64,000 bases of DNA from an uncultured Gammaproteobacteria bacterium (GTDB lineage Bacteria; Patescibacteriota; Microgenomatia; Levybacterales; GWA1-39-11). The stretch lies in contig CAZHDZ010000001.1 in assembly GCA_964531275.1 (NCBI GenBank), positions 68,882 to 132,881 of the forward strand. Direction: 5' to 3'. The position numbers and the translations under genes are program-made. Positions 16,476 to 64,000 of this stretch are shown one piece after another (position 1 is the first letter of the stretch; every line of letters begins with the position of its first letter). The notes under the pieces were generated by a model. The model did no database searches. It saw nothing but the letters and a program-made list of their open reading frames with translations, and was not told the DNA's origin.

Positions 16476-16487
16476 GCTAAAGGAATT

Positions 16488-18890: not shown

Positions 18891-18951
18891 CGCGTATGCG
18901 CCAAGCTCTGCTTAACAATGGCAAGCTTTGCTTACCCTTGTTGACTAGTTT

Positions 18952-20516: not shown

Positions 20517-21182
20517 TTAACTCTCTGAGGTGAGTGAAAGAATATAATTAGCTGCTTCTACAAACGTTGTTGCAAAGTAGTCGACAGGTATGCCTTTGAA
20601 GTCATTTTTTACTCTTACGCCGCTTTCAAGAACTGCAACGAAATGAAGCCCTGCACCTTTTGCAGCAACGGCATCACTTACAGCATCTCCAACGTAGACA
20701 ACTTCTTGCGGTTGAAGTTTGAAATCCCTTAGGACTTTTATAAAAACTCTTGGGTCAGGTTTTAGAAAGTCTGAGTTTTCTTTGTAATAAAATTTTTCCA
20801 TTCGGGAATTAAAGGGGTGAAGGTTGTGCAGTAGATGCTTTGCTTCCCCAATAGATCGTGAAGTAAGTAGTGCTAGCTTGATATTTCTGCTTAATAACGC
20901 ATCCAATGTATTTAAGTTGCGTAAGGGAACATGATCAGCTACACCTTGTGCAACGGCTTCTTCGTGAGCAATATAAAGTTTTTGTATAAATTCTTCAACA
21001 TTTATTCCTGGAAATCTTTGCAGTGCTGCAGTTTCTAGATCTACGCCCCAGTTCTTTTTATGCGCACTACGCGTCATTGGTTTATGACCCATTTGCGTAG
21101 CAACTTTATTCTCAATGAGAAAAGTAGCTTCCTCAGTCATGCTTAACGTGCCGTCAAAATCAATAGCAACGAGTTTTATCAT
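20517..21182 (-). CDS. HAD-superfamily hydrolase (beta-phosphoglucomutase/phosphatase-like)
   Basis: Motif I VAIDFDGTL, motif II LTSRS, motif IV GDAVSD. Confidence 0.75.
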   Translation of the reverse strand: MIKLVAIDFDGTLSMTEEATFLIENKVATQMGHKPMTRSAHKKNWGVDLETAALQRFPGINVEEFIQKLYIAHEEAVAQGVADHVPLRNLNTLDALLSRNIKLALLTSRSIGEAKHLLHNLHPFNSRMEKFYYKENSDFLKPDPRVFIKVLRDFKLQPQEVVYVGDAVSDAVAAKGAGLHFVAVLESGVRVKNDFKGIPVDYFATTFVEAANYILSLTSES

Positions 21183-21218
21183 TGATTAACTTGTATTTCT
21201 GTTCTCCATTCACAAAAA

Positions 21219-27137: not shown

Positions 27138-28346
27138 ATGAACATTCTTTTTATTAGTCCTAATTCACCTTTTGAAAGCATCGGTGGAATTGAAAGATAT
27201 GTAATTAATCTTATTAATTTTTATAAAAATAGAAAAGAAGATGAGGTGCACTTGATCCTTCCAACAAAAGAAAAAAGCAACATAGTCAAGGAAGGTAGTA
27301 TGACTATTTATTATGATACAAGCCTTTTTGTTTCGGGAGATATGACACGGTCGCAGACAGAAATAGTTGATAAGGCACATTTATTTGCTTCACTTGTAGA
27401 AAAAATTATTAAAGACGAAAAAATTGATATTATCTGTGCAGAAAATATTATGTTCAGTACTCCCCCTTCCTTCAGTCTTTTGCTTAATATGGTTGCCAAT
27501 ATACACAAGATTCCTCTTGTTCTGCGACTTCATATGTATCCAGCCTCAGATCTTCAGATTGCATTAACCACACAACTTTTATGGAATAAAATTAGTTGCG
27601 TTAGTAGAAGTGTTGTTGGGGATTGTTTTGAAAAAGGCGCAAACATAGATAAATTATCTACGGATTATTTAGGAGTAAATCTTGATAATTTTAATACGGT
27701 TCGTGATCCAAAATATCAACTGAGAAAAAAACTAAATCTTTCAGAAGACAAAAAGATAATTCTAACGGCAAGTCGGATTATCAGGGGTTCTAAAAATATC
27801 TTGCAGGAAAAGGGAATAATTAATCTCATTCAAGCTTTTTCAAAACTCGCTTTAAGATATCCAGACTTACACCTCGTGATTGGTGTTGGAAAAGCGTCTG
27901 AAAATTTAAAAAACCATTTCAATAGTGCTTATGAAATGCTTCTGGGATATATAAAAATTCACAATATAGAATCCCAGACGTCAGTTAAGATGTTTGAGCT
28001 CGATGAAATGCCAGATGTCTATAGAGAATCAGATGTATTTGTCCTTGCTGCAGAGCGCAATGAAACTTTCGGACAGGTGTTTATCGAAGCAATGGCATGC
28101 GGGCTCCCAGTAATAGGTGCAAATACAGGAGGAATTCCTGAAATTATTAGTGATTCATATAATGGGTATTTGGTTCCTGCAGATGACTCAAGTGTTCTTG
28201 CCCAACGAATAGAAAGTTTGGTGAAGGATGATGTAATAAGAAGTGATTTTATTAAGGCGGGTATAAAGACTATTGAGGAGAAATTTACTTCTGAAGATCA
28301 ATTCCTGAGTTTTAATAAAATGTTAAGAAACATTCAGCTAAGCTAG
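27138..28346 (+). CDS. glycosyltransferase family 4 (GT-B, retaining)
   Basis: C-terminal ETFGQVFIEAMACGLPVIGANTGGIPEII (EX7E motif). Confidence 0.8.
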   Translation: MNILFISPNSPFESIGGIERYVINLINFYKNRKEDEVHLILPTKEKSNIVKEGSMTIYYDTSLFVSGDMTRSQTEIVDKAHLFASLVEKIIKDEKIDIICAENIMFSTPPSFSLLLNMVANIHKIPLVLRLHMYPASDLQIALTTQLLWNKISCVSRSVVGDCFEKGANIDKLSTDYLGVNLDNFNTVRDPKYQLRKKLNLSEDKKIILTASRIIRGSKNILQEKGIINLIQAFSKLALRYPDLHLVIGVGKASENLKNHFNSAYEMLLGYIKIHNIESQTSVKMFELDEMPDVYRESDVFVLAAERNETFGQVFIEAMACGLPVIGANTGGIPEIISDSYNGYLVPADDSSVLAQRIESLVKDDVIRSDFIKAGIKTIEEKFTSEDQFLSFNKMLRNIQLS

Positions 28347-34442: not shown

Positions 34443-36065
34443 ATGCCAGAGCGACCATTCCTATTTTTAGATGTTCCGGATAGATACATAGAACAGCCTA
34501 TTGGCCAAAATGTAGGTGTGTCTGTTGTTGTGCCAATGTATAAGGAGTTTGGCAATGGAAACATCTTTCGACTGATAGACACATTCTCGAGCCAGACAGT
34601 GGCTAGTGATAGTTTTGAGGTTTTATGTGTTATCAATAATCCAAAAAAAGATGCAGAGGAAGAATCTCCTGCCTTTTTAGAAAACCAGCAAGTTCTTAAG
34701 GTTGCACAATACTTGAAGGAAGGAGCGGAGATACCTGAAAGTTACACTCCATATCAACAAAGAGTGATACGAAACGCTCAGCAATATGGCCTATCCATGC
34801 ACATGATTGATGTAACAGCGGGAGGTGTAGAAAGAAATATGGGAAGAGCGAGACAAGTTGGTGTTATTGAGGCATCAAAGAGGGCTCAACAGACAGAAAA
34901 GAAAGATGAATCAATAATTGCCCATATGGATGCAGACACGGTTGTCGAGAAGAGATATATAGAAAAATTGGTCGAATTTTTCAAGACCACAGGTGTTGAA
35001 TCAACAGCATTGCACTATGACTACGTAATGCCACATGGTGACAAAAGACTTTTTCAAACTTCGCAGGAATACGATAGAAGAAATTGGTACTATCGGCTTT
35101 CTGGTCTGCTTGCTGGAATCCCGACTGTATCAACGCCACAAATTGCAGCCACAGTTGGAGCGCATAAAAAAATTGGAGGAGTACCAATAAGGCCGGTAGG
35201 TGAAGACGTTACTCTTTTTGATTTGTTACGAAATAAAACAAATTTTTCTTCAGCCCCGCACATAACAGTATTTGCCGCTGATCGCGCAAGGGTCGAGAGC
35301 TTTGATGGAAGCGGTAGATATCATTCCTTGGATAATATCAAGGAAGCTGTTTGTTCAAATCCTTCAATTGATCTTGTCAGAAAAGCCGTTGCGTTAATGA
35401 AATACCAACAACCAGGGGAGTTGCCGCGGCTTGATTTCGTTACAGAAATGCTTGAAAAATTTGATCTTTCTATTGACCACGAAGAGCTAGTGCAGTTATT
35501 TACTCAAGAATACCCAAGTGCAGAGGCCTTCTTTAGAAAAGTAGACGATTTTATTAGAAGTGGCCAAGGTAATTTAGATTTTAAACCTACAATTACTCCT
35601 ATCGAATATGCAACAAAATTAATTACAATTTTTTCGAACTGGTCAAATCCTCAAGAGAAAACTCTTCTGGACGATTTGTTAAGAAGAGAGGAGAGAACTC
35701 AGAAGATGCGTCATTCATTTAGAAAAGACGTAGTTAGAACAGTATTAACTGAATATTATAGAACAGGAGATGCTTCAACAGTATCTGCTATAAATCCTGA
35801 TTACGGAGAATTTCTAGCTCAGAACCCTTGGATGGTAGATGAGCTTAGTGCATTATTTAATAAAGGATTTAGTTGCGAGGAAGCGTTCGATATATTGACG
35901 AGCTCATTTCCAGGATTTTTAGGAGAATGGAGTGAAGATCTCCAAGGCTGTACAGCCAAATTCAAAGGGCTTATCAATTTTGTAATGAAATGTAAGCACA
36001 GCAGGGAAGAATTTCCAGATGTTCATCGAGCAATAAATTACTTTTCCTCACCGTTAGTGCTTTAG
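34443..36065 (+). CDS. GT2-like glycosyltransferase N-terminal domain with long C-terminal extension
   Basis: VSVVVPMYKE (GT2 start pattern) and DxD-like AHMDADT; remaining 300 aa unassigned. Confidence 0.35.
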   Translation: MPERPFLFLDVPDRYIEQPIGQNVGVSVVVPMYKEFGNGNIFRLIDTFSSQTVASDSFEVLCVINNPKKDAEEESPAFLENQQVLKVAQYLKEGAEIPESYTPYQQRVIRNAQQYGLSMHMIDVTAGGVERNMGRARQVGVIEASKRAQQTEKKDESIIAHMDADTVVEKRYIEKLVEFFKTTGVESTALHYDYVMPHGDKRLFQTSQEYDRRNWYYRLSGLLAGIPTVSTPQIAATVGAHKKIGGVPIRPVGEDVTLFDLLRNKTNFSSAPHITVFAADRARVESFDGSGRYHSLDNIKEAVCSNPSIDLVRKAVALMKYQQPGELPRLDFVTEMLEKFDLSIDHEELVQLFTQEYPSAEAFFRKVDDFIRSGQGNLDFKPTITPIEYATKLITIFSNWSNPQEKTLLDDLLRREERTQKMRHSFRKDVVRTVLTEYYRTGDASTVSAINPDYGEFLAQNPWMVDELSALFNKGFSCEEAFDILTSSFPGFLGEWSEDLQGCTAKFKGLINFVMKCKHSREEFPDVHRAINYFSSPLVL

Positions 36066-36102: not shown

Positions 36103-37173
36103 ATGCGATATACTGATTCTATGGAAGAGTCTTCAGTTGAAGTTGCACCACCTGTAAGAAGAATTGTTAGGAGAAGTGGTGGCGGCGTAGTCCCAATACA
36201 GAAAGGTCCTTCTGCATTATCCAGAATTGCCAGCAAGGTTGTCCCAGTTGTTCTTGCGGCCTCTGCAATAGGAGGTAGTGCTGGCTTGGTGCATGAAAGT
36301 ATGAATTCAGATAGTGACAATAGGGGAGCTACGGTGACATTCATACCAAAAGTAGAGGCGAGTGAAGAAGCCATGATTCAGGAAAGTGATGGCATTTTTG
36401 ATATGGTTTTCCATGGGTCAGATAATGCCCAAAAGACTGAGGCACGACAGGAAGTAGATATGTATAAAAGCAAAATTGCAGCAAAGCCAGGATACGTACA
36501 AGAGCACCAAGTGATTCCATTAAAGTATGAACGTCAAATAGAACAGACCGCAATGGCATACGGAATTTCCAAAGATACTTTGATGGGGATTGTTTCTGTA
36601 GAAAATGGTGGGGGTGTGGATATAACAAATAAATCCTCAGGTGCCCGTGGGGTCACACAATTTTTGCCGGATACAGCAAGGCAATATGGATTGCGAGTTA
36701 ATTCTGAATTTGATGAACGTACAAATCCAGATAAAAGTATCGCTGCAACAGGTAAGTATCTGGAGCAGAATAAAGCACTTTTTGGTGGTGATGAAGGGCT
36801 TGCCATATGGTCGTATCATGCAGGAGCAGGAATAGTATTTCGGGCGTTAAGGACTTATTTCCTGGATACCAACAATGTAGATATTGGGGATTATGTTGAT
36901 GCAATTGTTACAAATAATCCAGCAGCCCGGGAAAGCGTAGAGGAAAAGACTAAAGAATTAATGAAAAAAGACGGATTGGATATTTACAAGCTTCTTAAAA
37001 ATGAAGCTGTCCAAAAAAATGTTGTCGAGGGTCTTGATGATTTTTCAGGTAGTTACCCGTTTCAAGTTCTTGCTGCCGGTGAATTATTGAATGAAAGATC
37101 TAACAATGTTGTTGCTTCTCAGGAGGAACAAAAACCAATTCTTGCAAGCGCAACCGGCAATACTTCTCGATAA
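36103..37173 (+). CDS. membrane-anchored lytic transglycosylase (SLT / GH23-like domain)
   Basis: Cytoplasmic N-tail, one TM, then GIVSVENGGG…ARGVTQFLPDTARQYGL…AYHAG pattern of SLT catalytic domain. Confidence 0.55.
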   Translation: MRYTDSMEESSVEVAPPVRRIVRRSGGGVVPIQKGPSALSRIASKVVPVVLAASAIGGSAGLVHESMNSDSDNRGATVTFIPKVEASEEAMIQESDGIFDMVFHGSDNAQKTEARQEVDMYKSKIAAKPGYVQEHQVIPLKYERQIEQTAMAYGISKDTLMGIVSVENGGGVDITNKSSGARGVTQFLPDTARQYGLRVNSEFDERTNPDKSIAATGKYLEQNKALFGGDEGLAIWSYHAGAGIVFRALRTYFLDTNNVDIGDYVDAIVTNNPAARESVEEKTKELMKKDGLDIYKLLKNEAVQKNVVEGLDDFSGSYPFQVLAAGELLNERSNNVVASQEEQKPILASATGNTSR

Positions 37174-38937: not shown

Positions 38938-40575
38938 CTAGTCTTTATCAAAGTTAACTATCCTGTATGCTTTTGTACCATCAAATCTAGTAACTATTGT
39001 TTGGCTTGTTGTACCTTTCTTGTCTGAGCAATCACCATTCTCTATTATGAGAGAATTTGGTTGTAGGACAAGAGTGCCATCCATTATCCGGTTGGATATA
39101 CACGGATCATCGATAAAGACTAGATTGTCTATTGTGTCTGCCTTGAACTTACTTTTAATTAGACCATCCGGTAACAGCTCAAATCGCCTTGCATAGAACA
39201 AATAGTACAGTGGAATATCATCAATCATTGGGAGATAAATGGTGGTATAGTTTTTTTGATTAGCAAGCACATATTCTATTAACTCCTTTTCTCCTTGATT
39301 TCTAAAAAAAGGTTTGTACGACTTACTATGAACAGAGTATTGGTGAATAAAAAATACTAGTTCGAGTGTTAAAAATAAAGTCATAATACATGTGAAGTAT
39401 AATTTTTTTCTTTTGCCCAATTCTTCCCAGAAAGCTAAAGAGCCAATAGAAAGCATGATAACAATTGGCAATATCATTAGCATGCTCCTGTGAATATTTG
39501 GTGAGTCTTCGTACGTTAGAGCAGCAGGAAGAGCAGCCAACAAAAATAGATACAGTAAATACCACGCAAATTTATTCGTTCGTTGATATTGGAGGAAGAA
39601 AAAGAAAAAAAGCAAAAGTAATGGAATAAAACTGTAGTACAAAATCCCTTGTCCAGGGACTACATATCTATCAGGAAGCCCTTTGTCCTCGAACAGAAAG
39701 TCAAAAGAATAGTAGGAAATATATTGTCCGATAAAGCCACGAGCATACACCACGGCTTTATTGTGGAATAAACGCGCTTCAAAAATATGGTTTTGTCCTT
39801 CGCCTATGGTAAATTGTTGAATTGTATTATTGAGGATTTCATTTTTATAAAATGCTACTTGGCTAAATCTTCCACTTCCGGCGCCGGTAAGACCAAGAAG
39901 AGCAGTTATTGCAAATAAAATTGTGATGAATGCAGCAATCGTAATTTTTATCTTATTTGCTTTTGCGAAAAGAGGTAGCGGAAGAAAAATGAATGGGATG
40001 AGGAGTCTATATACGTGATAGAAAAAATATGTTGTTGCACAAAGCACAAATGCATATATTAGATATCGTATTTTTCCGGTTCTTAAATATACGAAGCCAA
40101 AATAAAGCGAGAAAATCAGAAAAAATAATCCAATAATTCCTTCAGAGGTAGAGCGGGATAGTACTACATGCCATGGAAGTATTGCAAGAAAGAATGATGC
40201 TACAAGTGCAACTTTTGGTTTTTTAAATAATTCGATAAGTAGAAGGTAGAGGGGGAAAACTGTTAGTGCTCCAAATAACGAAGAGGGAAGGCGTGTGGCA
40301 AATTCATTCACCCCAAATATAAAAGTGAATATTCCAGAGAGCCAAAAAATTCCTATCGGTCTGAAATCGCCAAATTTATCAAAGAACAGAGGGAAAGCAT
40401 TTCCATATATATCCTGTCCATGAAGAAAAATATATCTTCCAATATATCCTGCCGCCAATTCGTCTGTGTGAAAGCTTTGAGGTACAACTTCTAAGTTATA
40501 TACTCGCAGAACTAATGCAAAGAGAAAAATAAGAGTGAGCACAATGTACTTATTTTTCAAAATTGAGATAGTCAT
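38938..40575 (-). CDS. GT-C membrane glycosyltransferase, ArnT/PMT (GT39/GT83, COG1807) family
   Basis: First extracytoplasmic loop SFHTDELAAGY (D-E motif) after TM1, about 11 TM, C-terminal soluble domain. Confidence 0.75.
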   Translation of the reverse strand: MTISILKNKYIVLTLIFLFALVLRVYNLEVVPQSFHTDELAAGYIGRYIFLHGQDIYGNAFPLFFDKFGDFRPIGIFWLSGIFTFIFGVNEFATRLPSSLFGALTVFPLYLLLIELFKKPKVALVASFFLAILPWHVVLSRSTSEGIIGLFFLIFSLYFGFVYLRTGKIRYLIYAFVLCATTYFFYHVYRLLIPFIFLPLPLFAKANKIKITIAAFITILFAITALLGLTGAGSGRFSQVAFYKNEILNNTIQQFTIGEGQNHIFEARLFHNKAVVYARGFIGQYISYYSFDFLFEDKGLPDRYVVPGQGILYYSFIPLLLLFFFFFLQYQRTNKFAWYLLYLFLLAALPAALTYEDSPNIHRSMLMILPIVIMLSIGSLAFWEELGKRKKLYFTCIMTLFLTLELVFFIHQYSVHSKSYKPFFRNQGEKELIEYVLANQKNYTTIYLPMIDDIPLYYLFYARRFELLPDGLIKSKFKADTIDNLVFIDDPCISNRIMDGTLVLQPNSLIIENGDCSDKKGTTSQTIVTRFDGTKAYRIVNFDKD

Positions 40576-40763
40576 TAATAAATTATAGCATTCAGGTGGC
40601 TAGCGAATTTAAGCTAAATAGATTTAACACTCCGAATAACAAATTGAGGCTATTTTCCTTTCTTTTCATGCTACGATTGAGTATTAGAATCGGTGCTATA
40701 ATTTCAGTAACGACTAAAAACTACTTGTGAATCATTGATGTCTAAAAAAGATTAAGGAATTCT

Positions 40764-42272
40764 ATGGAAGACGCAACAATTAAAAAAAACAAAGAACAGG
40801 CCAGGGAGATTTTCCCCATCTCCTACTTAAGAAAAAATCGTTATACAAAAGCACTGACTCATATTAAATTAGGAACACTATTATCCCTTTTTTTTGTTTT
40901 CTTTACTACTTATATTGCATTTTATAACTTAGGAAAGGCGCCTTTGGATAACTGGGATGAAGCTTGGTATGCGGAAGTGACAAAGCAGATGCTCAGAACA
41001 AAGGAATTTGTGATACTCAACTGGAATGGGGGAGTTTGGTTAGATAAGCCCCCAATGTATATGTGGCTTTCTGCTCTAATCTCAAGTGTGATTGGATTGT
41101 CGGAATTTTCAGTACGACTGACTTCTGCGCTAAGTGGACTTATTGCTATCATGCTCGTTGTTTGGCACTCAAAAAAAGAATACGGTATTGTTCCGGCAAT
41201 ATTAGCATTTTCCACTTTAGCATTAAATAATATCTTTGTTTGGCGGATGAGAAGCGGCAATATAGACATTTTTGTTACTTTTCTGATTTTGCTCACCTAC
41301 TTTGTTCTCATAGGTAAAAATAAGTATAGATATCCTTTGCTTGGGCTACTATTTAGTTTTATTTTCTTAACAAAGGCTTCGCTTATTATGTTTCCTCTGA
41401 GCATCTTTCTGGTACACGAAATTCTTTTTCAAAGAAAGAATATTTTCAAACAATTTAAAGAATACCTAAAGTTTGTTGGAGCACTTTTATTACTTCCTGG
41501 GTTATGGCTTCTAATCGGCTATTTAAAAATAGGATTGGCTTTCCCTATCTACTACTTATTCACATCTGATCAGGGTGTAGCAAGTGTATCACTTGCCAAA
41601 TTTAACACTGACTATATCATGCATACATATTATTCTCTTCAAAGAAGATTTTCATTTGTATTTATTGCTGGAATAGTATTTGCGCTAAGGCATATCAGAG
41701 ACGCTAAGATTTTTCTCCTATTATTGTATGCGACTGCATTGCTCATTCAGTTAAGTTTTACAGATAGAAATAATAACTGGTACTTAATTCCCTCGATGCC
41801 TTTCTGGTCTCTTCTTGTTGCCTTTGCGACATATCACATTATTAATATATTCAGAAAAAATAAATTTATCATCGGAATAATAATTCTATTGACTCTTTAT
41901 ATATCTTATAGAACATTTACCATCAACATACTTCCTATTCTCGACACATCTTCTTCAATTAAGCAAACTGAAAGTAGTAAGTTGTTGAATAAAATAGCGA
42001 AAAGTGATGATGTTATTGTTAGGCTTGATCACTTATATCCTGCGACCATCTACTATACGAATAGGAAAGTATTAGCTTCGCCAAAGGACACTGTAGAAAC
42101 TAAAAAAATATGGATAAATAGAAACGATTTGATAACAGCAATTCAGAAGAAAAACATTCGTTGGATTGTTGGGGAGAATAGCGAGGTTGAAAATTTTGTA
42201 AAGCAAGCTGCCGAAATCCAATTCCGACAAATAAAAGTGAATGATGTAGAAACCATTGCTGAGGCTCTGTAA
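40764..42272 (+). CDS. GT-C membrane glycosyltransferase, ArnT/PMT (COG1807) family
   Basis: APLDNWDEAWYAEVTKQM loop-1 motif (classic ArnT/PMT DE motif), polytopic, C-terminal soluble domain. Confidence 0.75.
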   Translation: MEDATIKKNKEQAREIFPISYLRKNRYTKALTHIKLGTLLSLFFVFFTTYIAFYNLGKAPLDNWDEAWYAEVTKQMLRTKEFVILNWNGGVWLDKPPMYMWLSALISSVIGLSEFSVRLTSALSGLIAIMLVVWHSKKEYGIVPAILAFSTLALNNIFVWRMRSGNIDIFVTFLILLTYFVLIGKNKYRYPLLGLLFSFIFLTKASLIMFPLSIFLVHEILFQRKNIFKQFKEYLKFVGALLLLPGLWLLIGYLKIGLAFPIYYLFTSDQGVASVSLAKFNTDYIMHTYYSLQRRFSFVFIAGIVFALRHIRDAKIFLLLLYATALLIQLSFTDRNNNWYLIPSMPFWSLLVAFATYHIINIFRKNKFIIGIIILLTLYISYRTFTINILPILDTSSSIKQTESSKLLNKIAKSDDVIVRLDHLYPATIYYTNRKVLASPKDTVETKKIWINRNDLITAIQKKNIRWIVGENSEVENFVKQAAEIQFRQIKVNDVETIAEAL

Positions 42273-44576: not shown

Positions 44577-44906
44577 CTATTGTATGTTGAAGAAAATCAA
44601 AATGGCAATCACCAGTATGAAATTAATGGTTGTACCGATTTTGGCATCAAGCCAAAATCTAACAATGAGAGACTGCGAAAGCAGCACTGAAATAATTGCC
44701 ATATATACCCACCAAGCTTGATCAAGCAGAAATCCTATGCCTGAGGATAAAAACAATATGCTCGCAATAAACCAAACAACACCGTATGGTTTGGATATAG
44801 ATTCACTGAATTGATCAAGCTCTGCAATATTAAAGCCCTTCGCAAAACCTAAAAGATGTATCATCCCATGAATTATCAGTATCCCAATAATAATTTCTTT
44901 AATCAT
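44577..44906 (-). CDS. small integral membrane protein (3-4 TM)
   Basis: Hydrophobic 109-aa ORF overlapping neighbours by a few nt. Confidence 0.35.
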   Translation of the reverse strand: MIKEIIIGILIIHGMIHLLGFAKGFNIAELDQFSESISKPYGVVWFIASILFLSSGIGFLLDQAWWVYMAIISVLLSQSLIVRFWLDAKIGTTINFILVIAILIFFNIQ

Positions 44907-45285
44907 ATTTTCTTCTTAGTAAGAACATAACTAAAATCAAAACTATAATTGAAAGTGCAGAGTAGAGTAATTGCAACCAATGTGGGTACTGAACGATATA
45001 TAACTCAGAAATCTCGAATATAAGCATCCCAAGCGCAGCAGTTACAGCGAGCTCATACTGAAATTTGTGATGAATAAATAACAACCAGATAGCGCTTAAG
45101 CTGATAGCGCCCACTAAAAAAAGTATAAGCCCAGGAACTGTAAAGGAGTGGAAGTACCCATGTAACTGAGGAACTGTAGCTCCTAAGCCATTAGTTATTA
45201 TTAGGCTCACGCCACCAAAGATAGCAGTAATACCAACGAATAACAAAATTCCAATTACCAAATTCTTAATTAAGTACGAACTCAT
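44899..45285 (-). CDS. small integral membrane protein (4 TM)
   Basis: Hydrophobic 128-aa ORF, overlapping neighbours. Confidence 0.35.
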   Translation of the reverse strand: MSSYLIKNLVIGILLFVGITAIFGGVSLIITNGLGATVPQLHGYFHSFTVPGLILFLVGAISLSAIWLLFIHHKFQYELAVTAALGMLIFEISELYIVQYPHWLQLLYSALSIIVLILVMFLLRRKYD

Positions 45286-53929: not shown

Positions 53930-54229
53930 TTATCGAAGATTATCCTTAGACAAGCTCCAGGATTTACTTAGCTGCTTTAATAGCTCTAAATTACCTTCAA
54001 TGAGGGCTTTCTTTTTTGCTACCGTCCAACGTTTTAATTGTAGTTCTCTTTTTTCTGCTTCTTTTCTTGTTTTGTATTCTTCCGTAAAGACTAATTCAAG
54101 ATAAGAAAACTCTTTCGTTGCAATGTTTTGTTTTGACTTGTGAGAATTTAGTCGTTGTTCAATATCATGAGTAAGACCAATGTAGTAAGTTTTCTTATCA
54201 CAAAAAAGAATATAAACAAACCAGCGCAT
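53930..54229 (-). CDS. GIY-YIG nuclease-domain protein (UPF0213-like)
   Basis: WFVYILFCDKKTYYIGLTHDIEQRLNSH…EEYKTRKEAEKRELQLKRW is the canonical GIY-YIG core. Confidence 0.8.
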   Translation of the reverse strand: MRWFVYILFCDKKTYYIGLTHDIEQRLNSHKSKQNIATKEFSYLELVFTEEYKTRKEAEKRELQLKRWTVAKKKALIEGNLELLKQLSKSWSLSKDNLR

Positions 54230-54266: not shown

Positions 54267-54340
54267 GGGTGACCCTACCGGAATTCGAATCCGGGTTTCT
54301 TGGATGAGAACCAAGTGTCCTAACCGCTAGACTATAGGGC
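54267..54340 (-). tRNA. tRNA-Glu (anticodon CUC)
   Basis: Reverse complement folds as a cloverleaf: acceptor GGCCCTA/TAGGGTC, D-arm GTCT…GGAC, anticodon stem CTTGG/CCAAG with loop TTCTCAT, T-arm CCGGA-TTCGAAT-TCCGG, discriminator A; CCA not encoded (ACCC). Confidence 0.8.
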
Positions 54341-54424
54341 CGAAATTAAAGCCCCTGAATTTATTCATAGGGCCGCAAGATTTCTATTATACTAAAATCC
54401 GACTTTGAACTCAATTTTACATTT

Positions 54425-56688: not shown

Positions 56689-57447
56689 ATGAGCAGCATA
56701 TATCTTTCAGTCGTGATTCCTTCCTACAACGAAATGGGCAATCTTCGTAAGGGCACACTTTCTAAGGTTCAAAAGTATCTAGAGAAGCAAAAATTTGGTT
56801 ACGAGGTAATTATTGTTGATGATGGTTCTACGGATGGAAGTCTAGAATTCGTAAAAGATTATGCAAAGGATGAAAAGACCTTTCGGGTTATTCAAAATTC
56901 GCATTCAGGCAAAGCTGGGGCAGTAACTTCAGGCATGTTGGACGCAAGGGGAGATTATGTTCTATTTGCAGATATGGATCAGGCAACTCCAATAGAAGAG
57001 CTTGAAAAAGTACTTCCATATATAAAGGAAGGATACGACGTTGTTATTGGCTCAAGAAGTTCAAATAGAAAAGGCGCTCCAATGACTCGCAAGGTTATGG
57101 CAAAGGGCATGATGATGTTGCGTTCGGCGATAGTGGGGCTCCCGGAGATACAGGATACGCAATGTGGGTTTAAGTTATTTTCCAAGAAAGCGTCGCAGGA
57201 TGTATTTAATAATGTTAAGACTAGCCACAATGGATTTAAAACAATACATGGCTCATCAGTTACCGCTGGTTTCGACATTGAGATACTATATGTGGCAAAA
57301 GCGAAGGGCTACAAGATAAAAGAAGTCCCGGTAGATTGGTTGTATGTTGAGACGAGAAGAGTAAGTCCTATTAAAGATTCTGTAGAAGGTTTTTTTGAAT
57401 TATTTAAGATTAGAAAAAAGATTTCATCCGGCAAGTACGGTATATGA
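56689..57447 (+). CDS. GT2 polyprenyl-phosphate glycosyltransferase (Dpm1/GtrB/ArnC-like)
   Basis: LSVVIPSYNE, IIVDDGSTDGS, DxD (FADMDQ), about 250 aa soluble GT-A. Confidence 0.8.
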   Translation: MSSIYLSVVIPSYNEMGNLRKGTLSKVQKYLEKQKFGYEVIIVDDGSTDGSLEFVKDYAKDEKTFRVIQNSHSGKAGAVTSGMLDARGDYVLFADMDQATPIEELEKVLPYIKEGYDVVIGSRSSNRKGAPMTRKVMAKGMMMLRSAIVGLPEIQDTQCGFKLFSKKASQDVFNNVKTSHNGFKTIHGSSVTAGFDIEILYVAKAKGYKIKEVPVDWLYVETRRVSPIKDSVEGFFELFKIRKKISSGKYGI

Positions 57448-57476
57448 CATTCTGTCTTAAAGAATAGGGTTTAACA

Positions 57477-58625
57477 ATGAAAAAATTATTTATTCCCTTG
57501 TGGATATCCGGAAGTTTGTTACTATTCCTTTATTCATATACACAGGTTGATTTGTCTCTAACTCTTTCCAGAGCATCTTTTCTTCAGGTAATCCAGAAAG
57601 CTTTTCAATATGTAGGATGGTTCAATAGGCCGTTATCTACAGTTTTATATATAGGACTGTTTGTTTTTCTTTTCTTTTTGTATTTCTGGACATTAAAATT
57701 GGTTTCAAAGAACCAAATAAATGCGAAGAAATTATGGTTCGGAATATTGTTAGTTACCGGAATTGCGGTTCTTTCATACAATGCATTTTCATACGATCTT
57801 TTTAATTATATTTTTGATGCAAAAATTATAACTTTTTATAATCAAAATCCCTACGTTCATAAAGCTTTGGATTTTCCCGGTGACCCGATGCTATCTTTCA
57901 TGAGATGGACGCATAGGGTGTATCCATATGGACCGCTTTGGCTTGCAATTACTGTCCCACTGAGCTTTATTGGCAATCAAATTTTTGTTGTTACCTTTTT
58001 CCTTTTCAAGCTTCTGATGGGAGGCTTTTTCCTTATCACGGCATGGTCAATTGGAAAAATTGCCGAGAGATTAAAATTAAAGAATTATTTACTACCTATT
58101 GCTGCTTTTGCTTTCAATCCATTTATTCTCGTTGAGTCATTGGTTTCTGCCCATAATGATATTGTTATGATGGGCTTGGGAATGCTTGGTGTGTATTTCC
58201 TGCTGAAGAAAGAATATATCCAGGGGGGCTTGCTCCTTGTATTGTCGATTGGCGTAAAATTTGTGACCCTGCTTTCTGCAGTGCTTTTTATTATCCTCAG
58301 TCTCTTTAAGAAACAACGATATTTTATTGGGGGATCAATAATACTTATGATCCTGGGAGTAATTCTTGCTTCATATAGGACTAATTTCCAACCATGGTAT
58401 CTTCTTTATGTATTTCCATTTGCTGTTCTTATGATTGAGAAGAGATTTGTGCGGTATCCTTTATTCATTTTTTCTATTGGTAATATTATTTACTATATTC
58501 CGTATTTATATACCGGAAATTGGGATGCTCCCATTCCTCTCATTCTCAACTCAATAATAATTGGGTCAGCAGTACTATCTATTTTAGTAAGCCTTTTTTA
58601 TTATGTAACCAAAGGTAAGTCTTAG
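57477..58625 (+). CDS. polytopic membrane protein, putative GT-C-fold glycosyltransferase (DUF2029/GT87-like)
   Basis: About 10 TM helices, aromatic-rich loop YNAFSYDLFNYIFDAKII…PYGPLW; located inside the glycosyltransferase cluster. Confidence 0.35.
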   Translation: MKKLFIPLWISGSLLLFLYSYTQVDLSLTLSRASFLQVIQKAFQYVGWFNRPLSTVLYIGLFVFLFFLYFWTLKLVSKNQINAKKLWFGILLVTGIAVLSYNAFSYDLFNYIFDAKIITFYNQNPYVHKALDFPGDPMLSFMRWTHRVYPYGPLWLAITVPLSFIGNQIFVVTFFLFKLLMGGFFLITAWSIGKIAERLKLKNYLLPIAAFAFNPFILVESLVSAHNDIVMMGLGMLGVYFLLKKEYIQGGLLLVLSIGVKFVTLLSAVLFIILSLFKKQRYFIGGSIILMILGVILASYRTNFQPWYLLYVFPFAVLMIEKRFVRYPLFIFSIGNIIYYIPYLYTGNWDAPIPLILNSIIIGSAVLSILVSLFYYVTKGKS

Positions 58626-58645
58626 TTTTTTGATACAATTGCAGT

Positions 58646-60208
58646 ATGAAAATCTTTAAAAAGTTCATCTTAGAAATAGTAGTGGGTGTTATTCTTGCAG
58701 TCATTTTCTTTGTTACAAGGCTTGTTAACATAACATCTCTGCCGATCTTTACTGATGAGGCAATATATACAAGGTGGGCGCAAATTGCTAGATTTGATTC
58801 AAATTGGAGGTTTATTTCACTAACCGATGGCAAGAACCCTTCTTTTATATGGGCGGATAGCATAATGATGAAGCTTGTTGATGACCCTTTGTTTGCCGGA
58901 CGTTTGGTTTCTGTTTTTTCTGGATTTTTAGTTTGTATTGGTATTTATTTTTTAACAAGAGAAATTTTCAAATCAAAAGAAAAAAATGGTGTACGTATGA
59001 TTTCTCTGATTGCAGTAGTCCTTACAGTTCTATTTCCGTTCCTTTTGGTTTATGACAGATTGGCAATTTACGAAAGTCTAACAGCAGCATTTTTTGTTTG
59101 GACTTTATATTTTCAAATCTTGGTAGTAAGACATATGAGATTGGATCTTGCTATGATCTTAGGCTTTGTGCTTGGTGGATCAGTTCTGACAAAGTCTTCA
59201 GGTTTTCTTTCTTTATATCTCACACCCGCGCTTCTCTTATTGTTCAATTTCTCTGAGAAATTAAGAAAAAAAAGAATAGCAAAATTTGTGATTTTAGTTA
59301 TCGTAAGTGCAGGTATTGCTTACGGGATGTATTCTATTCAACGACTTTCACCGTTCTTTCACATTATCGCAGAAAAAAATACAATTTTTGTCCATCCAAT
59401 AGGTGAGTGGTTGAAGCTACAACCAATGGACAAGGTAGCAAATTTTCAACGTAATTTCATGGGGCTTTGGGATTGGTTTTTGATTTATTTCACACCTCCA
59501 TATATTTTGCTTGCAGTTCTTTCATTCTTCGTATCAAAACGCTTTTTAAAAGAAAAAATATTGCTAGTTGCTTGGTTTGTTATTCCTTTCTTGGGGCTTT
59601 GTGTATTGGGAAAAACACTGTATCCACGGTACATACTATTTATGACCATTCCGTTAATACCATTAGTTGCGTATTCTATCTATAAATTATTTACTCGTTA
59701 TAAAAATGTAGTCTTAAGAGCTATTTTTATTCTTATAATTGCAGCACTGCCATTGAGGATGATGTATTTCATTATCTTTGATTTTGCGAATGCACCTATT
59801 CCCAGACTAGATCTTGAGCAATTTATAAATGGTTGGCCGGCAGGCGGGGGAATCCGTGAAAGTGTAGATTTCTTTAATAAAGAATCAGAAAAAGGTCCGA
59901 TTTATGTTGCAACCCAAGGCACATTCGGGCTCCTGCCACATGCATACGAAATTTATTTTCTTAATAATTCCAATATAACCCTTAAAGGTTACTGGCCAAC
60001 GAATGAAACAATTGATGAAGAGATGTTAAAAGAGGCAGAAACAAAGCCTGTGTATGTTGTTTTTTATCAGGACTGCATGCACTGTGAGCTTCCAGGGATA
60101 GGGCCTACCACATGGCCAATGGATAAGATTGCAAGTTACAAAAAGGGAATAGGCAATACCACGCTTACTATTTATAAAGTAAAAACTCCTAATGCAAAGA
60201 GTGAATAA
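58646..60208 (+). CDS. GT-C membrane glycosyltransferase, ArnT/PMT (COG1807) family
   Basis: Loop-1 PIFTDEAIYTRWAQ (DE motif), polytopic, C-terminal soluble domain. Confidence 0.7.
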   Translation: MKIFKKFILEIVVGVILAVIFFVTRLVNITSLPIFTDEAIYTRWAQIARFDSNWRFISLTDGKNPSFIWADSIMMKLVDDPLFAGRLVSVFSGFLVCIGIYFLTREIFKSKEKNGVRMISLIAVVLTVLFPFLLVYDRLAIYESLTAAFFVWTLYFQILVVRHMRLDLAMILGFVLGGSVLTKSSGFLSLYLTPALLLLFNFSEKLRKKRIAKFVILVIVSAGIAYGMYSIQRLSPFFHIIAEKNTIFVHPIGEWLKLQPMDKVANFQRNFMGLWDWFLIYFTPPYILLAVLSFFVSKRFLKEKILLVAWFVIPFLGLCVLGKTLYPRYILFMTIPLIPLVAYSIYKLFTRYKNVVLRAIFILIIAALPLRMMYFIIFDFANAPIPRLDLEQFINGWPAGGGIRESVDFFNKESEKGPIYVATQGTFGLLPHAYEIYFLNNSNITLKGYWPTNETIDEEMLKEAETKPVYVVFYQDCMHCELPGIGPTTWPMDKIASYKKGIGNTTLTIYKVKTPNAKSE

Positions 60209-61841
60209 GATTTTCACAAACCTTCAGATAGGCTTAATTATTTCCATTTTTTTTATTGGTATTTTCTTTAGATTCTATGGGCTAGGAATGACTCCTTCTG
60301 GCCTTTCAAATGATGAAGTTGACATAGGTTATGACGCATACTCAATTCTTAAAACTGGCAAGGATCAATGGGGTGAAGCACAGCCAGCGCCATATCTCAA
60401 AGGTTTTGGAGACTATAGACCCTCCCTCTACACCTATCTGGTTATCCCTTCGGTAGCCGTCTTTGATCTAAATGCCTATGCAGTAAGATTTCCCGCAGCT
60501 TTAATTGGGTCACTTACAATTTTGCTTGTTGGTGTTCTCTCTTATCTCCTATGGAAAAAACCGTGGATAAGTATAACCTCAATGTTCTTTCTAGCGGTTA
60601 ACCCCTGGCATGTCGGCATGAGTAGGATTGGTATAGAATCTACCGTTGGAGTTTTTATCGCTGCTTTGGCTCTTATTTTCTTTATATCTGGGTTGAGAAG
60701 AGCTAAATTACTTTACCTATCCGCAATTGTATTTGCATTGCTTGTTTATACCTATGCTGCCTATACGATCTTCGCTCCAATACTTATTACTATATCTTTA
60801 ATTGCTTTTAGAAAAGAAATTTCTCGCAAGAATATTGCTATAGCTCTTGCCATTTTTGTTGCCGTTCTACTTCCTTTAATAATTTTTGGTGGCCTTAAGA
60901 CTGCCGGAACTAGATCTTCTCAAGTAAATTTGACAAGAGATTCCGGAACCTTAAATGTTGTAAATGACCAAAGGGGCGAATGCCAAAAAATGATTAGTCC
61001 TATCATCTGCAAAATATTTGTTAACAAACAGTCTATCTTTATAGTTAAATTTGCAACCAATTATATTAGCCATTTTTCACCAGAACTGCTTGCCATTAAT
61101 GGAACTTCTACTCAATATTCAACACTTCCTCAAAGAGGGCTGTTGCATTTGGTTGAATATATCGCCTTTATACTTGGAGTTGTTGTCTTACTTCTTGAAA
61201 AGGGTAAAAGTAACACACTTCTTTTATTATGGATTATTCTTTCCCCCATTCCGGATAGTATAACTGGGGGTGGTCACTATTCTCGATATTTGCTATTGCT
61301 TCCTGCAGTTCAATTAGCAGCAGGTTTTTCACTGCAATTCTTAATTGAAAAAATCCAGTCAAAGAAGCTTTTACTCTTGTTTCCTTTAGGATTTTTACTA
61401 TATGAGGCAGTATTTTTTGGGCTTACTTATTTTTCTTATTTCAGAATTTTCTATGCTAGAAATACCATGTCAGGTTATCAAGAAGCAATGGAATATATTA
61501 AAACCGAAAAAGACAATTACGAAAAAATTGTTATTTCTAGTAGAGTTAATGATACAAAACAATATGCATATTATTTGTTCTTTGCAAAGTATGATCCAGG
61601 ACTTTATCAATCTGGCAAGACCAAAGAGTTAACAATGGAAAGTGACAATTGGATACGAGTAAAAAGAATAGAGAATATTTATTTTCTTAATAAGATTCCA
61701 GACAATATCAATTTACAAAAGACGTTGTTCTTGGCAGCTCCAAAAGAAGTACCAAGACGAGTTAATGTAATTCGTGAAATAAAAGATCTAAAAGGAGATG
61801 TGCTTTTTGTTGTATTTACGCCTAAGGTTGTGACTCGATGA
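60192..61841 (+). CDS. GT-C membrane glycosyltransferase, ArnT/PMT (GT39-like) family
   Basis: Loop-1 LSNDEVDIGYDAYSILKTGKDQWGE; paralogue of 38938..40575 and 61822..63543. Confidence 0.7.
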   Translation: MQRVNKIFTNLQIGLIISIFFIGIFFRFYGLGMTPSGLSNDEVDIGYDAYSILKTGKDQWGEAQPAPYLKGFGDYRPSLYTYLVIPSVAVFDLNAYAVRFPAALIGSLTILLVGVLSYLLWKKPWISITSMFFLAVNPWHVGMSRIGIESTVGVFIAALALIFFISGLRRAKLLYLSAIVFALLVYTYAAYTIFAPILITISLIAFRKEISRKNIAIALAIFVAVLLPLIIFGGLKTAGTRSSQVNLTRDSGTLNVVNDQRGECQKMISPIICKIFVNKQSIFIVKFATNYISHFSPELLAINGTSTQYSTLPQRGLLHLVEYIAFILGVVVLLLEKGKSNTLLLLWIILSPIPDSITGGGHYSRYLLLLPAVQLAAGFSLQFLIEKIQSKKLLLLFPLGFLLYEAVFFGLTYFSYFRIFYARNTMSGYQEAMEYIKTEKDNYEKIVISSRVNDTKQYAYYLFFAKYDPGLYQSGKTKELTMESDNWIRVKRIENIYFLNKIPDNINLQKTLFLAAPKEVPRRVNVIREIKDLKGDVLFVVFTPKVVTR

Positions 61842-63543
61842 GAAGATACGCTTCTTCTTCAATAGGATATCTCATGAGTTCTTGTCCTTTATTAAAGACC
61901 ACTGGACGATTGGGGTACGTAATAGTCTTCAGTATTCCTACATCAGCTTTTTTGCCTTCCGGAGTTGTAATGAGAAGTTGATTTGGTATCTTGGGATCCG
62001 TCTCCCAATTAATAGGACGAATTTCTATATTTGAGAATTTAGTAGGGTATGAAAAACCCTCAGAGTCATCGGGAGACCACACAGCCTCTTTAACAAATTT
62101 TTCCGGAGGGTATAGAAGTTCTGCAAGCAGTATTGAATAGTTAATGCTTGCATCGCGTTCAATAATAATTTTATTGTAGTTACTCCCATTTGCCTTAATA
62201 AATTGTGCAACTTCTCGATCTCCGATATTCCAATATTTAGCATAAAAAATTGGAAATCTTACAAAATAAGATGCCAAGAAATAGAAAATACTGTAAAGAC
62301 AGAACATTGCTGTAACAGCAAGAGCCGTGTATTTTAACTTTGAGCTTTTTTGTTTTAAAAGAAAGCAGACTGCTGCCACTAGTCCAATGCTTGATAAGAA
62401 ACTAATAGGAAAAAGTATGAAAAAGGTTCTAGTTCCTTGAGGTGGATCTCTGGTTATGCTGCTTACTAAAATAAGTTCTACGATCCATGCCAGTATAATG
62501 AATGACTCTTTAGTTTTGGTTCTGAATAATAGTATTCCGCCAAGAACTATAAGAGGTAATTCAAAAATATACCACTGGCCAATATTTCCAGAAGTAGAGC
62601 TTCCAAGAATATCTCCATTCACAAAATAATAGCTTACTGATAAATGCGAAACAATATTATTGATATAAAGCCAGAACGTCATGAAGTAGTAGTTAAATAA
62701 CAGCTTTGAAAGTAATGGATTTATTTCTATAAAATAACTTCTAAATTCCTGCAGTGGTGCTTGAATTTTTGCGCTGGTAAATATTAAAGTGCCCAGCGTT
62801 GAATCGGCACCTCCTTTTGTTATGGCTCCAAAAATGAACGGTAGTAGACAAGCACCAAATGTTAGAAGTAGCGTTGCTGCTTGTTTTGGCACTATGGAGT
62901 GTTTGTTTTTCCAAAGAAAAAACACAAGAGATAGTATGAAGAGCGGCACGAAAAGACGAGCAATGTTATATGTATAGACTGAAAGTGCAAATAGGATTCC
63001 TGAAAGAATAAAGTAAAGCATCCTCTTATCAGAGGTAGCTTTTAATAATAAAAATACCCCAGTGACAATAAATAGGTTTGCGAGGGTGACTTCAAATGCT
63101 GATCTTGAGAAAAAGATAAGCCATGGATTTAACGCCAAAAGAAGTGAGATTCCGATTGGTCCCCATTCATAAAGTGGGTCGTTGTCCTTTTTGTATTTCT
63201 TTAATAATTCTTTTGAAAGAAAGAAGGAAACAACAACTATTAAAAAGCCTGAAAAAGCTGATACAAATCGGATACCAAAAGCATTTAATCCAAATATTGC
63301 AATTGAGGGAACGGTTGCATAAACATATCCAGGAAGCTTATATTCTCCAAACGCCTTAAAATTTTGGGGGTATGTATTGCCATGTTCATCCATGCCGGTT
63401 TTTAGTATTGAATATGCATTGTAGCCAATGGAGGTTTCATCTTCTCGGTATCCATTTGGAATTTCATTAAGCTTATAAAAGCGAAGTGCAAATGCAAGAA
63501 GAAAGATCGCAAGAAATATGATGATTTTACTTTTTCGTAACAT
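61822..63543 (-). CDS. GT-C membrane glycosyltransferase, ArnT/PMT (GT39-like) family
   Basis: Loop-1 YREDETSIGYNAYSILKTGMDEHGN; polytopic; C-terminal soluble domain. Confidence 0.7.
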   Translation of the reverse strand: MLRKSKIIIFLAIFLLAFALRFYKLNEIPNGYREDETSIGYNAYSILKTGMDEHGNTYPQNFKAFGEYKLPGYVYATVPSIAIFGLNAFGIRFVSAFSGFLIVVVSFFLSKELLKKYKKDNDPLYEWGPIGISLLLALNPWLIFFSRSAFEVTLANLFIVTGVFLLLKATSDKRMLYFILSGILFALSVYTYNIARLFVPLFILSLVFFLWKNKHSIVPKQAATLLLTFGACLLPFIFGAITKGGADSTLGTLIFTSAKIQAPLQEFRSYFIEINPLLSKLLFNYYFMTFWLYINNIVSHLSVSYYFVNGDILGSSTSGNIGQWYIFELPLIVLGGILLFRTKTKESFIILAWIVELILVSSITRDPPQGTRTFFILFPISFLSSIGLVAAVCFLLKQKSSKLKYTALAVTAMFCLYSIFYFLASYFVRFPIFYAKYWNIGDREVAQFIKANGSNYNKIIIERDASINYSILLAELLYPPEKFVKEAVWSPDDSEGFSYPTKFSNIEIRPINWETDPKIPNQLLITTPEGKKADVGILKTITYPNRPVVFNKGQELMRYPIEEEAYLLIESQP

Positions 63544-64000
63544 ATAGTAATTTTACTGTACAAAGTGCAGCAATTGCCAGACTAATAATTGTTAAGACAA
63601 GTCCGTATTGAAATGTCTTGGGCTCGTATTTAAATTCAATAGTGTGTTCTCCAGAAGGTACCTTAATAGCTCTAAATGCATAATTTGCTTTCAGAATTGG
63701 AGTATTTACCTTGTCGATATAAGCATTCCATCCTGGATAGTATGTGTCAGATAAGTACATAAGAGAATCTGAATCTGTTGTTGTTGCAACTGAAACAGTT
63801 GAAGAAGAGTATTTTGTGACCTTGAGTTGTTGTTTGACCAGTGGTTTGCTAGAAAGATTAGGGTCCGATTCCAGAAGCACACTTTTTGAAGGGTTAAATG
63901 TATCCTTTTCGAATGTATTCTTGAAATCCTGGAAGTTAGAATAAACCATGTACGATTTTGTTAAGAATACCCGAGAGGAGGAGGATAAATTCTCCTGTAC
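63527..64000 (-). CDS. C-terminal part of a YfhO-like/GT-C membrane protein (gene continues beyond window end)
   Basis: YYPGWNAYIDKVNTPILKANYAFRAIKVPSGEHTIEFKYEP + terminal TM resembles the YfhO-family C-terminal domain; no in-window N-terminus. Confidence 0.35.
   Translation of the reverse strand, partial: VQENLSSSSRVFLTKSYMVYSNFQDFKNTFEKDTFNPSKSVLLESDPNLSSKPLVKQQLKVTKYSSSTVSVATTTDSDSLMYLSDTYYPGWNAYIDKVNTPILKANYAFRAIKVPSGEHTIEFKYEPKTFQYGLVLTIISLAIAALCTVKLLYVTKK

Follow-up and report, generated by a model that had tools for sequence, protein, structure and literature searches.

Conserved Levybacteria gene clusters rich in GT-C membrane glycosyltransferases and their probable role in glycosylation outside the cytoplasmic membrane

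In Firmicutes, teichoic acids are glycosylated by the CsbB/GtcA/YfhO and GtlA/GtlB systems, for which it is experimentally established that a cytoplasmic GT2 enzyme makes a C55-P-sugar, followed by a flippase and by a YfhO or other GT-C enzyme that transfers the sugar outside (PMC7389260). A related set of genes is found at positions 56689-64000 of a 64-kb window (the whole stretch of DNA analysed here, from contig CAZHDZ010000001.1), where six long open reading frames (ORFs) encode a GT2 glycosyltransferase, a GT87-like membrane protein, three further GT-C proteins referred to as P3, P4, and P5, and the end of a YfhO-family protein. The region is probably the opening stretch of an operon system that is conserved in Levybacteria and would serve glycosylation on the outer side of the cytoplasmic membrane. 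It shares the GT2 and the YfhO-family gene with the Firmicutes systems. In contrast, five GT-C enzymes are present in the region, and probably nine in the whole cluster, representing five families, while no GtrA/GtcA flippase was found among the window's ORFs of at least 120 aa and the GT2 is without a membrane anchor.

In Corynebacteriales, Ppm1, MptA/MptB/MptC, and Pmt serve the synthesis of lipomannan and lipoarabinomannan and the O-mannosylation of proteins, and a number of GT-Cs work there outside the membrane, each responsible for a single linkage. The present locus has a similar combination of a Dpm1-like synthase, a GT-C of the MptA/B family, and a GT-C of the PMT type. However, the GT87-like protein matches the MptA and MptB models below their cut-offs, and YfhO and the PTPS_related proteins encoded by related loci have no counterpart there. 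Moreover, the mycobacterial Ppm1, Mpt, and Pmt genes are dispersed and do not form a single operon. To our knowledge, no mannan has been described from the present organism, a bacterium of the candidate phyla radiation (CPR). A third system, the Pgf protein O-glycosylation of Streptococcus mutans (PgfS, PgfM1, PgfM2, and PgfE), is similar in that the best NCBIfam match of the GT2 is PgfS, the YfhO fragment resembles the C-termini of PgfM1 and PgfM2, and a GT2 is combined with more than one YfhO-type GT-C per cluster in both. The scores are nevertheless far under the equivalog cut-offs (81.8 vs 500 and 42.7 vs 1400), no epimerase is seen, and the GT87, PMT_2, and GT39-like proteins are additional here.

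The ArnC/ArnT modification of lipid A resembles the locus to the extent that the GT2 and the GT2b of related loci match ArnC structures and the P4/P5 profile matches ArnT (5ezm). No Arn pathway genes are present, the likeness is at the superfamily level only, and we know of no reason to expect lipid A in a CPR monoderm. Assembly in the lumen of the eukaryotic endoplasmic reticulum (ER) by DPM1/ALG5 with ALG3, ALG9, ALG12, ALG6, ALG8, ALG10, and PIG-M is an analogy of logic and fold only, with identities of 11-18%. All the components belong to known superfamilies, and no characterised enzyme has an equivalog among them. The locus is not a categorically new system, and it stands out by how many GT-C genes, and how many kinds of them, lie together in one conserved operon of a very small genome. 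Most CPR bacteria have not been cultured; their genomes are very small, and next to nothing is known of their envelope chemistry. Literature searches on CPR, Patescibacteria, or Microgenomates together with GT-C, GT39, or YfhO brought up nothing relevant, and no description of the cluster was found.

The conservation of the cluster was assessed in 80 species-representative loci, all selected for containing a P5 or P4 relative and annotated by BLAST against reference proteins of each type. A recurrent co-linear order is seen in them, namely GT2, GT87, P3, PTPS_related(a), YfhO, P5, PTPS_related(b), PTPS_related(c), and GT2b. PTPS_related (PF10131) is functionally uncharacterised and is among the Pfam families homologous to GT-C enzymes (PMC7801869). 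A P5-type gene is present in 49 of the 80 loci, and YfhO lies directly upstream of it in 35 (35/80, or 35 of the 49). The succession PTPS(a)-YfhO-P5 is found in 26/80 loci and GT2-GT87-P3 in 30/80, all seven families lie within 10 kb in 20/80, and the exact nine-gene order is kept in 10/80. Each locus of about 20 kb has a median of 7 GT-C-like ORFs, with a maximum of 12. A P4-type gene (at least 45% identity) stands next to P5 in 3 loci; P4 is an accessory member of the cluster and is absent from many relatives. The named source records of the homologues belong to Levybacteria/Levyibacteriota and to Gottesman-, Woese-, Roizman-, and Daviesbacteria, which are Microgenomates of the CPR. Many of the relatives' records (loci L006, L009, L011, L013, and others) are titled 'uncultured Gammaproteobacteria bacterium', and their genes are nearest to Levybacteria/Microgenomates; such titles seem to be taxonomic placeholders.

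In the window's nearest relatives (L006, L009, and L001), the middle block is inverted. GT2b, PTPSc, PTPSb, and a GT39-like gene point in one direction, PTPSa, YfhO, and P5 in the other, and P4 (where present), P3, GT87, and GT2 again in the first. P4 is found in L006 and is lacking in L001 and L009. Judged from these relatives, the window most likely holds about the first half of an 11-gene cluster, which most likely continues past base 64000 with three PTPS_related proteins. Read along the window's plus strand, the predicted continuation is the remainder of YfhO and one PTPS_related gene (both minus), followed on the plus strand by a PMT_2/GT39-like gene, two PTPS_related genes, a 237-aa GT2, and possibly a Polysacc_synt flippase. 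The GT2b of L006, the closest relative, matches ArnC, DPMS, and GtrB structures as the GT2 does, and its place at the far end of the relatives' cluster suggests a second lipid-linked donor. A further relative, on the 617-kb Levyibacteriota contig JACOXU010000001.1 (L086), has the nine-gene core on one strand and, downstream of it on the same strand (15698-21731), a Polysacc_synt gene for a Wzx-like flippase, three additional GT2 genes, and another YfhO gene. This extension hints that a lipid-linked oligosaccharide may also be made in the cytoplasm. The Wzx-like Polysacc_synt gene adjoins GT2b in L001/L002 and in L086 and is the sole flippase candidate found.

The blocks of the cluster do not always stay together. 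Candidatus Levybacteria RIFCSPHIGHO2_01_FULL_36_15 carries two P5-type genes on different contigs (L007 and L037), of which one sits with PTPS-YfhO and a convergent P4 and the other between GT2-GT87-P3 and PTPS-PTPS-GT2b. This arrangement shows that the three cluster blocks are separable and that P5 has been duplicated in that genome. Overall, the cluster comprises 7-9 GT-Cs of five families, two lipid-sugar synthases, and a flippase candidate in about 17-25 kb, and that it has been kept throughout Levybacteria suggests that they depend in some way on a defined surface glycan. It offers a lead into CPR envelope chemistry, genes for assay, and a marker set for lineages that share an envelope feature.

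In the window itself, the genes form two convergent operons. The GT2 gene (56689-57447, plus strand) is followed after 29 bp by the GT87-like gene (57477-58625, plus) and after another 20 bp by P3 (58646-60208, plus), which overlaps the start of P4 (60192-61841, plus) by 17 bp. On the minus strand, the 3' end of the YfhO gene (63527-64000) overlaps the start of P5 (61822-63543) by 17 bp. P5 closes the PTPS-YfhO-P5 block and runs towards P4, and these two terminal genes overlap by 20 bp tail to tail. Such an overlap leaves no room for a terminator between the operons, and the transcript ends would be mutually antisense. The overlap spans 61822-61841 in the window and measures 11 bp in the closest relative (L006, 11700-11710). 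A consensus scan for promoters gave no enrichment over shuffled sequences, and the same type of scan gave 8 terminator-like sites against 4.9 ± 2.2 in shuffles, a marginal excess that was not used. The four complete GT-Cs of the region (the GT87-like protein, P3, P4, and P5) have at least nine hydrophobic segments each.

The GT2 protein (252 aa) matches PF00535 with 102.9 bits and belongs to the Dpm1/GtrB/ArnC class. Its top 7 Protein Data Bank (PDB) matches are DPMS, GtrB, and ArnC (1.6e-18 to 9.5e-13), the best being the Pyrococcus furiosus Dol-P-Man synthase 5mlz (1.6e-18), while chondroitin synthase and other PDB matches score 1e-9 or weaker. It has a GT-A GT2 catalytic domain with a DxD motif, and its VDDGS and DxD (D95-M-D97) align with VDDDS and DAD of the P. 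furiosus enzyme. No transmembrane helix is detected (maximum 19-residue hydropathy 1.11), and the C-terminal helices of the GtrB/ArnC/archaeal DPMS subtype are missing. Within its class, the GT2 could only be of the anchor-less DPM1/Ppm1 subtype; membrane helices are likewise absent from human DPM1 and mycobacterial Ppm1. It is under every NCBIfam equivalog cut-off, with PgfS as the best model (81.8 bits vs 500; 5e-23) and the other models likewise far below. The protein is 94% identical to its L006 orthologue and is predicted to be a polyprenyl-phosphate sugar synthase of the cytoplasmic face.

The GT87-like protein (382 aa) is a GT-C_B type enzyme that probably belongs to the GT87/MptA-B family. 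Its PF09594 score is marginal (25.5 vs a cut-off of 25.0), and precomputed annotation of this exact protein gives PF09594 together with PF26314 (MptA_B_family). The NCBIfam models NF038066 for MptB (37.1 vs 40) and TIGR03459 for MptA (59.6 vs 439) are matched under their cut-offs, and some orthologues are named MptB by NCBI. Profile and fold comparison shows the GT-C_B fold, with the chain-extending enzymes MptA/B, ALG3, PimE, and GPI-MT-I (PIG-M) as the nearest relatives. Residue D25, which lies in the first outer loop directly after the first transmembrane segment, does not vary among 43 sequences and is a putative counterpart of the catalytic Asp of PimE. P3 (520 aa) is a PMT_2 (GT39/GT83-like) GT-C with 45.3 bits to PF13231 (cut-off 26.1) and orthologues of 62% (L001) and 86% (L006) identity. 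Its first outer loop carries D37-E38 within TDEAIYTRWAQ. Single-sequence PDB searches with the GT87-like protein and with P3 returned no matches, and for the GT87-like protein it was the profiles and models that were informative.

P4 (549 aa) and P5 (573 aa) are GT39-like GT-Cs, and P5 has a C-terminal extracytoplasmic beta-rich domain. Neither has a Pfam match of its own above cut-off, and many orthologues of both carry PF02366/PF13231. The sole PDB match of the P4/P5 profile (82 sequences) is ArnT 5ezm (7.8e-5), and the single-sequence PDB search with P5 was without matches. The AlphaFold2 model of P5 has a mean predicted local distance difference test score of 93.4 and a predicted template modelling score of 0.93. 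All its significant Foldseek matches are GT-C family members, with STT3, AglB, ArnT, ALG12, Pmt4, and PglB top-ranked. The many transmembrane helices and outer C-terminal domain of the GT-C_A fold are thus present, the structure being modelled for P5 alone. An Asp-Glu motif occurs in the first outer loop of all three proteins (P3 D37-E38, P4 D41-E42, and P5 D35-E36), and D35 and E36 of P5 are invariant in 82 sequences. No MIR domain was found in P3, P4, or P5 by the Pfam scan; they are not PMT proper of the eukaryotic type. Orthologues of P5 in Levy-, Gottesman-, and Woesebacteria are 40-77% identical, and the P4 orthogroup spans 40-68%.

The YfhO fragment consists of the last 157 codons at the 3' end of a gene whose frame is open to base 64000. 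It matches the C-terminal 85 profile positions (751-835) of PF09586 with 62.7 bits against a cut-off of 28.5. It also matches the C-termini of PgfM1 (2e-11) and PgfM2 (4.6e-9), with scores far under the equivalog cut-offs. With the C-terminal part of the L001 YfhO (784 aa) the fragment shares 48% identity, and the orthologues in L001, L004, and L006 (778-803 aa) are assigned to YfhO by Pfam. That the five membrane proteins of the region are GT-C enzymes is supported by Pfam, profile, or fold.

These results bear on the family calls of a preliminary description, which had placed the six ORFs at the positions where the ORF listing also finds them. Its Dpm1-like, polyprenyl-phosphate sugar synthase-type GT2 is borne out by the PF00535 match and the nearest solved relatives, its DUF2029/GT87-like membrane protein by profile and fold comparison, and its GT-C calls for P3 by the PF13231 score and for P4 and P5 by the profile match to ArnT and the fold match of P5. 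The proposed logic of a donor synthase combined with GT-C transferases also finds support, as the GT2 is nearest to DPMS/GtrB/ArnC and directly upstream of the GT87-like and P3 genes in 30/80 loci, and the membrane proteins are GT-Cs. The YfhO-like gene at the window edge was correctly assigned to its family and not to its layout. The description recorded no strands, and P5 and YfhO are in fact on the minus strand; the stop codon of YfhO lies inside the window, its start is beyond base 64000, and only the C-terminal end is included. Transporter families were considered as an alternative for the six genes and rejected, since none matched any of them in the Pfam and NCBIfam scans. These family calls were correct and ordinary, and the added value lies in the larger conserved architecture and in the rejection of the duplication story discussed below.

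In the scheme that best explains the locus, the GT2, as a soluble or peripheral enzyme, would move one sugar from a nucleotide sugar to polyprenyl phosphate at the cytoplasmic face, as its homology indicates. The lipid-linked sugar would then be flipped across the membrane, for which the Wzx-like gene of the relatives is a candidate. Subsequently, the GT-Cs would transfer sugars to acceptors on the outer face, an activity predicted from their observed folds and motifs. In the window, this step would involve the GT87-like (MptA-B-like) protein, P3, P4, P5, and YfhO, with conserved acidic residues in the first outer loop. The scheme follows the three-component logic known from Firmicutes and extends it over five GT-C families. 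Most likely, the GT-Cs carry out separate, non-redundant steps on a single defined surface glycoconjugate (either a lipoglycan or the glycan of a glycoprotein), because they represent five families, each forms its own orthogroup, and the gene order is fixed. Lipomannan assembly in mycobacteria and the lumenal part of eukaryotic N-glycan assembly would be analogous. A single pathway is favoured because the families stay together in that order. For the sugar of at least one donor, our best guess would be mannose, given the affinities of the GT87-like enzyme to MptA/B, ALG3, PIG-M, and PimE and of the GT2 to DPMS. What the analysis shows directly is that the proteins belong to these families and folds, that their loop acids and synteny are conserved, and that the genes are packed as in operons and are under purifying selection. 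The scheme adds by inference the lipid-monophosphate donor, the flippase, the sugar, the acceptor, and the choice of one stepwise glycan over parallel work on several acceptors.

Several points weigh against this scheme. The window has neither a flippase nor a priming phosphoglycosyltransferase (ORFs of at least 120 aa were screened for the flippase). No GtrA/GtcA-type flippase was present among the window's ORFs of at least 120 aa with at least three hydrophobic segments, of which the small ones were compared with Pfam, and a 128-aa ORF with four transmembrane segments at 44899-45285 had no family match. All the proteins stay below the NCBIfam equivalog cut-offs, and homology therefore does not tell which sugar and which acceptor are used. 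The GT2 has none of the membrane helices of GtrB, ArnC, and archaeal DPMS and might instead have a lipid-linked oligosaccharide as its acceptor. What lies beyond base 64000 is deduced from a relative whose P5 is about 76-77% identical. Furthermore, the blocks GT2-GT87-P3, PTPS-YfhO-P5, and PTPS-PTPS-GT2b are sometimes apart (L004/L007 vs L037), which also fits separate pathways, and it is conserved co-location only that would argue for one glycan made on one assembly line.

A bolder form of the scheme is tentative. Levybacteria and related Microgenomates might make a novel complex envelope glycoconjugate, such as a lipomannan-like lipoglycan or a heavily glycosylated surface protein, built outside the membrane by 7-9 GT-Cs that are fed by two lipid-linked donors. 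If true, this would parallel, in a bacterium, the way glycans are assembled in the ER lumen or in mycobacteria, and it would be contained in one operon of a genome of ~1 Mb and possibly important for host-cell attachment.

The separability of the three blocks also keeps another explanation substantial, in which the GT-Cs work in parallel and each uses the same one or two lipid-linked monosaccharides on a different acceptor, such as a teichoic acid-like polymer, peptidoglycan, pilins, or other secreted proteins. The locus would then resemble CsbB/YfhO, GtlA/GtlB, or Ppm1/Pmt systems standing side by side. In bacteria, one GT2 donor is known to serve several GT-Cs with different acceptors (PMC7389260). 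The blocks occur apart in one Levybacteria genome (L007 and L037), P3, P4, and P5 resemble transferases that act on protein (PMT) and on lipid A (ArnT), and the YfhO fragment matches the protein glycosylation enzymes PgfM1 and PgfM2. However, seven families are kept together in a fixed order in many genomes, and one relative has a Wzx-like flippase and cytoplasmic GT2s in line with them, which a single multi-step pathway would lead one to expect. The GT87-like enzyme is also nearest to the chain extenders MptA/B, ALG3, PimE, and GPI-MT-I. Such parallel decoration is possible, and on this evidence we consider it less likely than the single multi-step pathway.

It is rather improbable that the GT2, instead of making a lipid-monophosphate sugar, works as a common cytoplasmic transferase in the extension of an oligosaccharide linked to a lipid pyrophosphate, with the GT-Cs acting mainly as polymerases, ligases, or en-bloc transferases similar to O-antigen ligase or oligosaccharyltransferase. 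This explanation would account for the lack of a transmembrane helix in the GT2 and for its scores under all equivalog cut-offs, for the presence of a Wzx-like flippase gene and another three GT2 genes in the longer cluster of the relative L086, and for the oligosaccharyltransferases STT3 and AglB as the best Foldseek matches of P5. Yet the nearest solved relatives of the GT2 and GT2b are exclusively lipid-monophosphate sugar synthases, and an absent membrane helix is shared with DPM1 and Ppm1. Likewise, the sole PDB sequence-profile match of P5 is ArnT, which uses a lipid-monophosphate donor, and the nearest relatives of the GT87-like enzyme are users of Dol-P-Man or polyprenyl-P-Man.

The preliminary description had instead proposed that the array arose by duplication in place and that the copies are diversifying and so vary the surface glycan or antigenicity. 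P4 and P5 are adjacent, belong to one subfamily, and have a common loop motif, P4 is present in some relatives and missing in others, and tandem runs of 4-7 related GT39-like genes exist in other Microgenomates. An all-against-all BLAST comparison gave 32% identity over 462 residues for P4-P5 (6e-54) and 24% over 131 residues for P3-P5. No significant match was found between P3 and P4 or between the GT87-like protein or the GT2 and the others, and this is not the pattern of local duplicates. In hhalign, P3 has a probability of 94% with the P4/P5 profile over its N-terminal 160 residues, as a remote homologue, while the GT87-like protein reaches 14% with P4/P5 and is related at the fold level only. 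Of the 'three ArnT/PMT-like paralogues', the subfamily kinship of P4 and P5 therefore stands and that of P3 does not; P3, the GT87-like protein, and YfhO are of families separate from P4/P5.

The locus paralogues are not each other's closest relatives, as P4 and P5 share 32% identity against 40-77% with orthologues elsewhere. When homologues were sorted against the window copies, 120/120 of the P5 list were nearest to P5 and 98/120 of the P4 list to P4, and for the rest of the P4 list the nearest was a GT39-like protein of a third type. P4 and P5 already form a convergent pair in Candidatus Levybacteria RIFCSPHIGHO2_01_FULL_36_15, where both proteins are ~52% identical to those of the window, which indicates that the duplication is old. 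The loop motif [DE]E…GY[DN]AYSILKTG.D..G is present in P4, as NDEVDIGYDAYSILKTGKDQWG, and in P5, as EDETSIGYNAYSILKTGMDEHG, whereas P3 has TDEAIYTRWAQ without GY[DN]AYSILKTG. It occurs in 109/120 P5-type and 99/120 P4-type homologues from other organisms. Since it contains the invariant D35-E36 and is subfamily-wide, it is a catalytic-loop signature of the subfamily and no trace of a local event.

Selection was examined against the L006 orthologues, to which identity is 94% for GT2, 86% for P3, 81% for the GT87-like protein, about 76-77% for P5, 67% for P4, and 58% for the C-terminus of YfhO. The gene-wide ratio of nonsynonymous to synonymous substitutions (dN/dS; Nei-Gojobori) is 0.02-0.09; dS is saturated (at least 1.6), and the ratios are rough, with dN far below dS. 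The genes of the region are real genes under purifying selection, with no sign of gene-wide diversification. For P4 vs P5, dN/dS is hopeless at 32% identity, and site-level tests need closer genomes than L006. Presence/absence variation is seen in P4 alone, which adjoins P5 in 3/49 loci. With orthologues far closer than any locus paralogue, a subfamily-wide motif, gene order conserved across Levybacteria, and low dN/dS, duplication in place with antigenic diversification is already contradicted for this locus and very hard to credit. Each of the membrane sugar-transferase genes is old and conserved in its own right, and together they are no array of recent duplicates undergoing diversification.

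Tandem runs of 4-7 third-type GT39-like genes on the same strand occur in L048, L050, L054, L073, L078, and L085 (also L051, L057, and L070), which belong to Woese-, Gottesman-, and Daviesbacteria. Their genes best match a 542-aa protein of L001. Tandem expansion may genuinely apply to those other Microgenomates loci.

Other envelope-related genes are found elsewhere in the window. A 545-aa PMT_2/PMT protein (38938-40575, minus strand) is ~29% identical to P4 and has a degenerate DE..GY loop; it forms a divergent pair with a 502-aa PMT_2 protein of weak ArnT similarity (40764-42272, plus). With these two at 38938-42272, the 64-kb window holds at least seven GT-C genes. Apart from a prepilin-type N-terminal methylation motif at residues 35-60, no domain is recognised in a 1349-aa protein (11176-15225, minus), and it is conceivable that this pilin-like giant surface protein is a glycosylation target. 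Two adjacent plus-strand ORFs of 643 aa (6756-8687) and 478 aa (8732-10168) have no Pfam or NCBIfam match; the latter, with ~13 hydrophobic segments, may encode a further polytopic envelope enzyme, or else a transporter. Further plus-strand genes encode a GT1/GT4-type glycosyltransferase (27138-28346), a 540-aa protein with a partial GT2 match (34443-36065), and an SLT lytic transglycosylase (36103-37173). Finally, a tRNA-Glu(CTC) gene (54268-54341, minus) adjoins a 99-aa ORF (53930-54229, minus), whose N-terminus WFVYILFCDKKTYYIGLT looks, by reading only, like a putative GIY-YIG nuclease motif.

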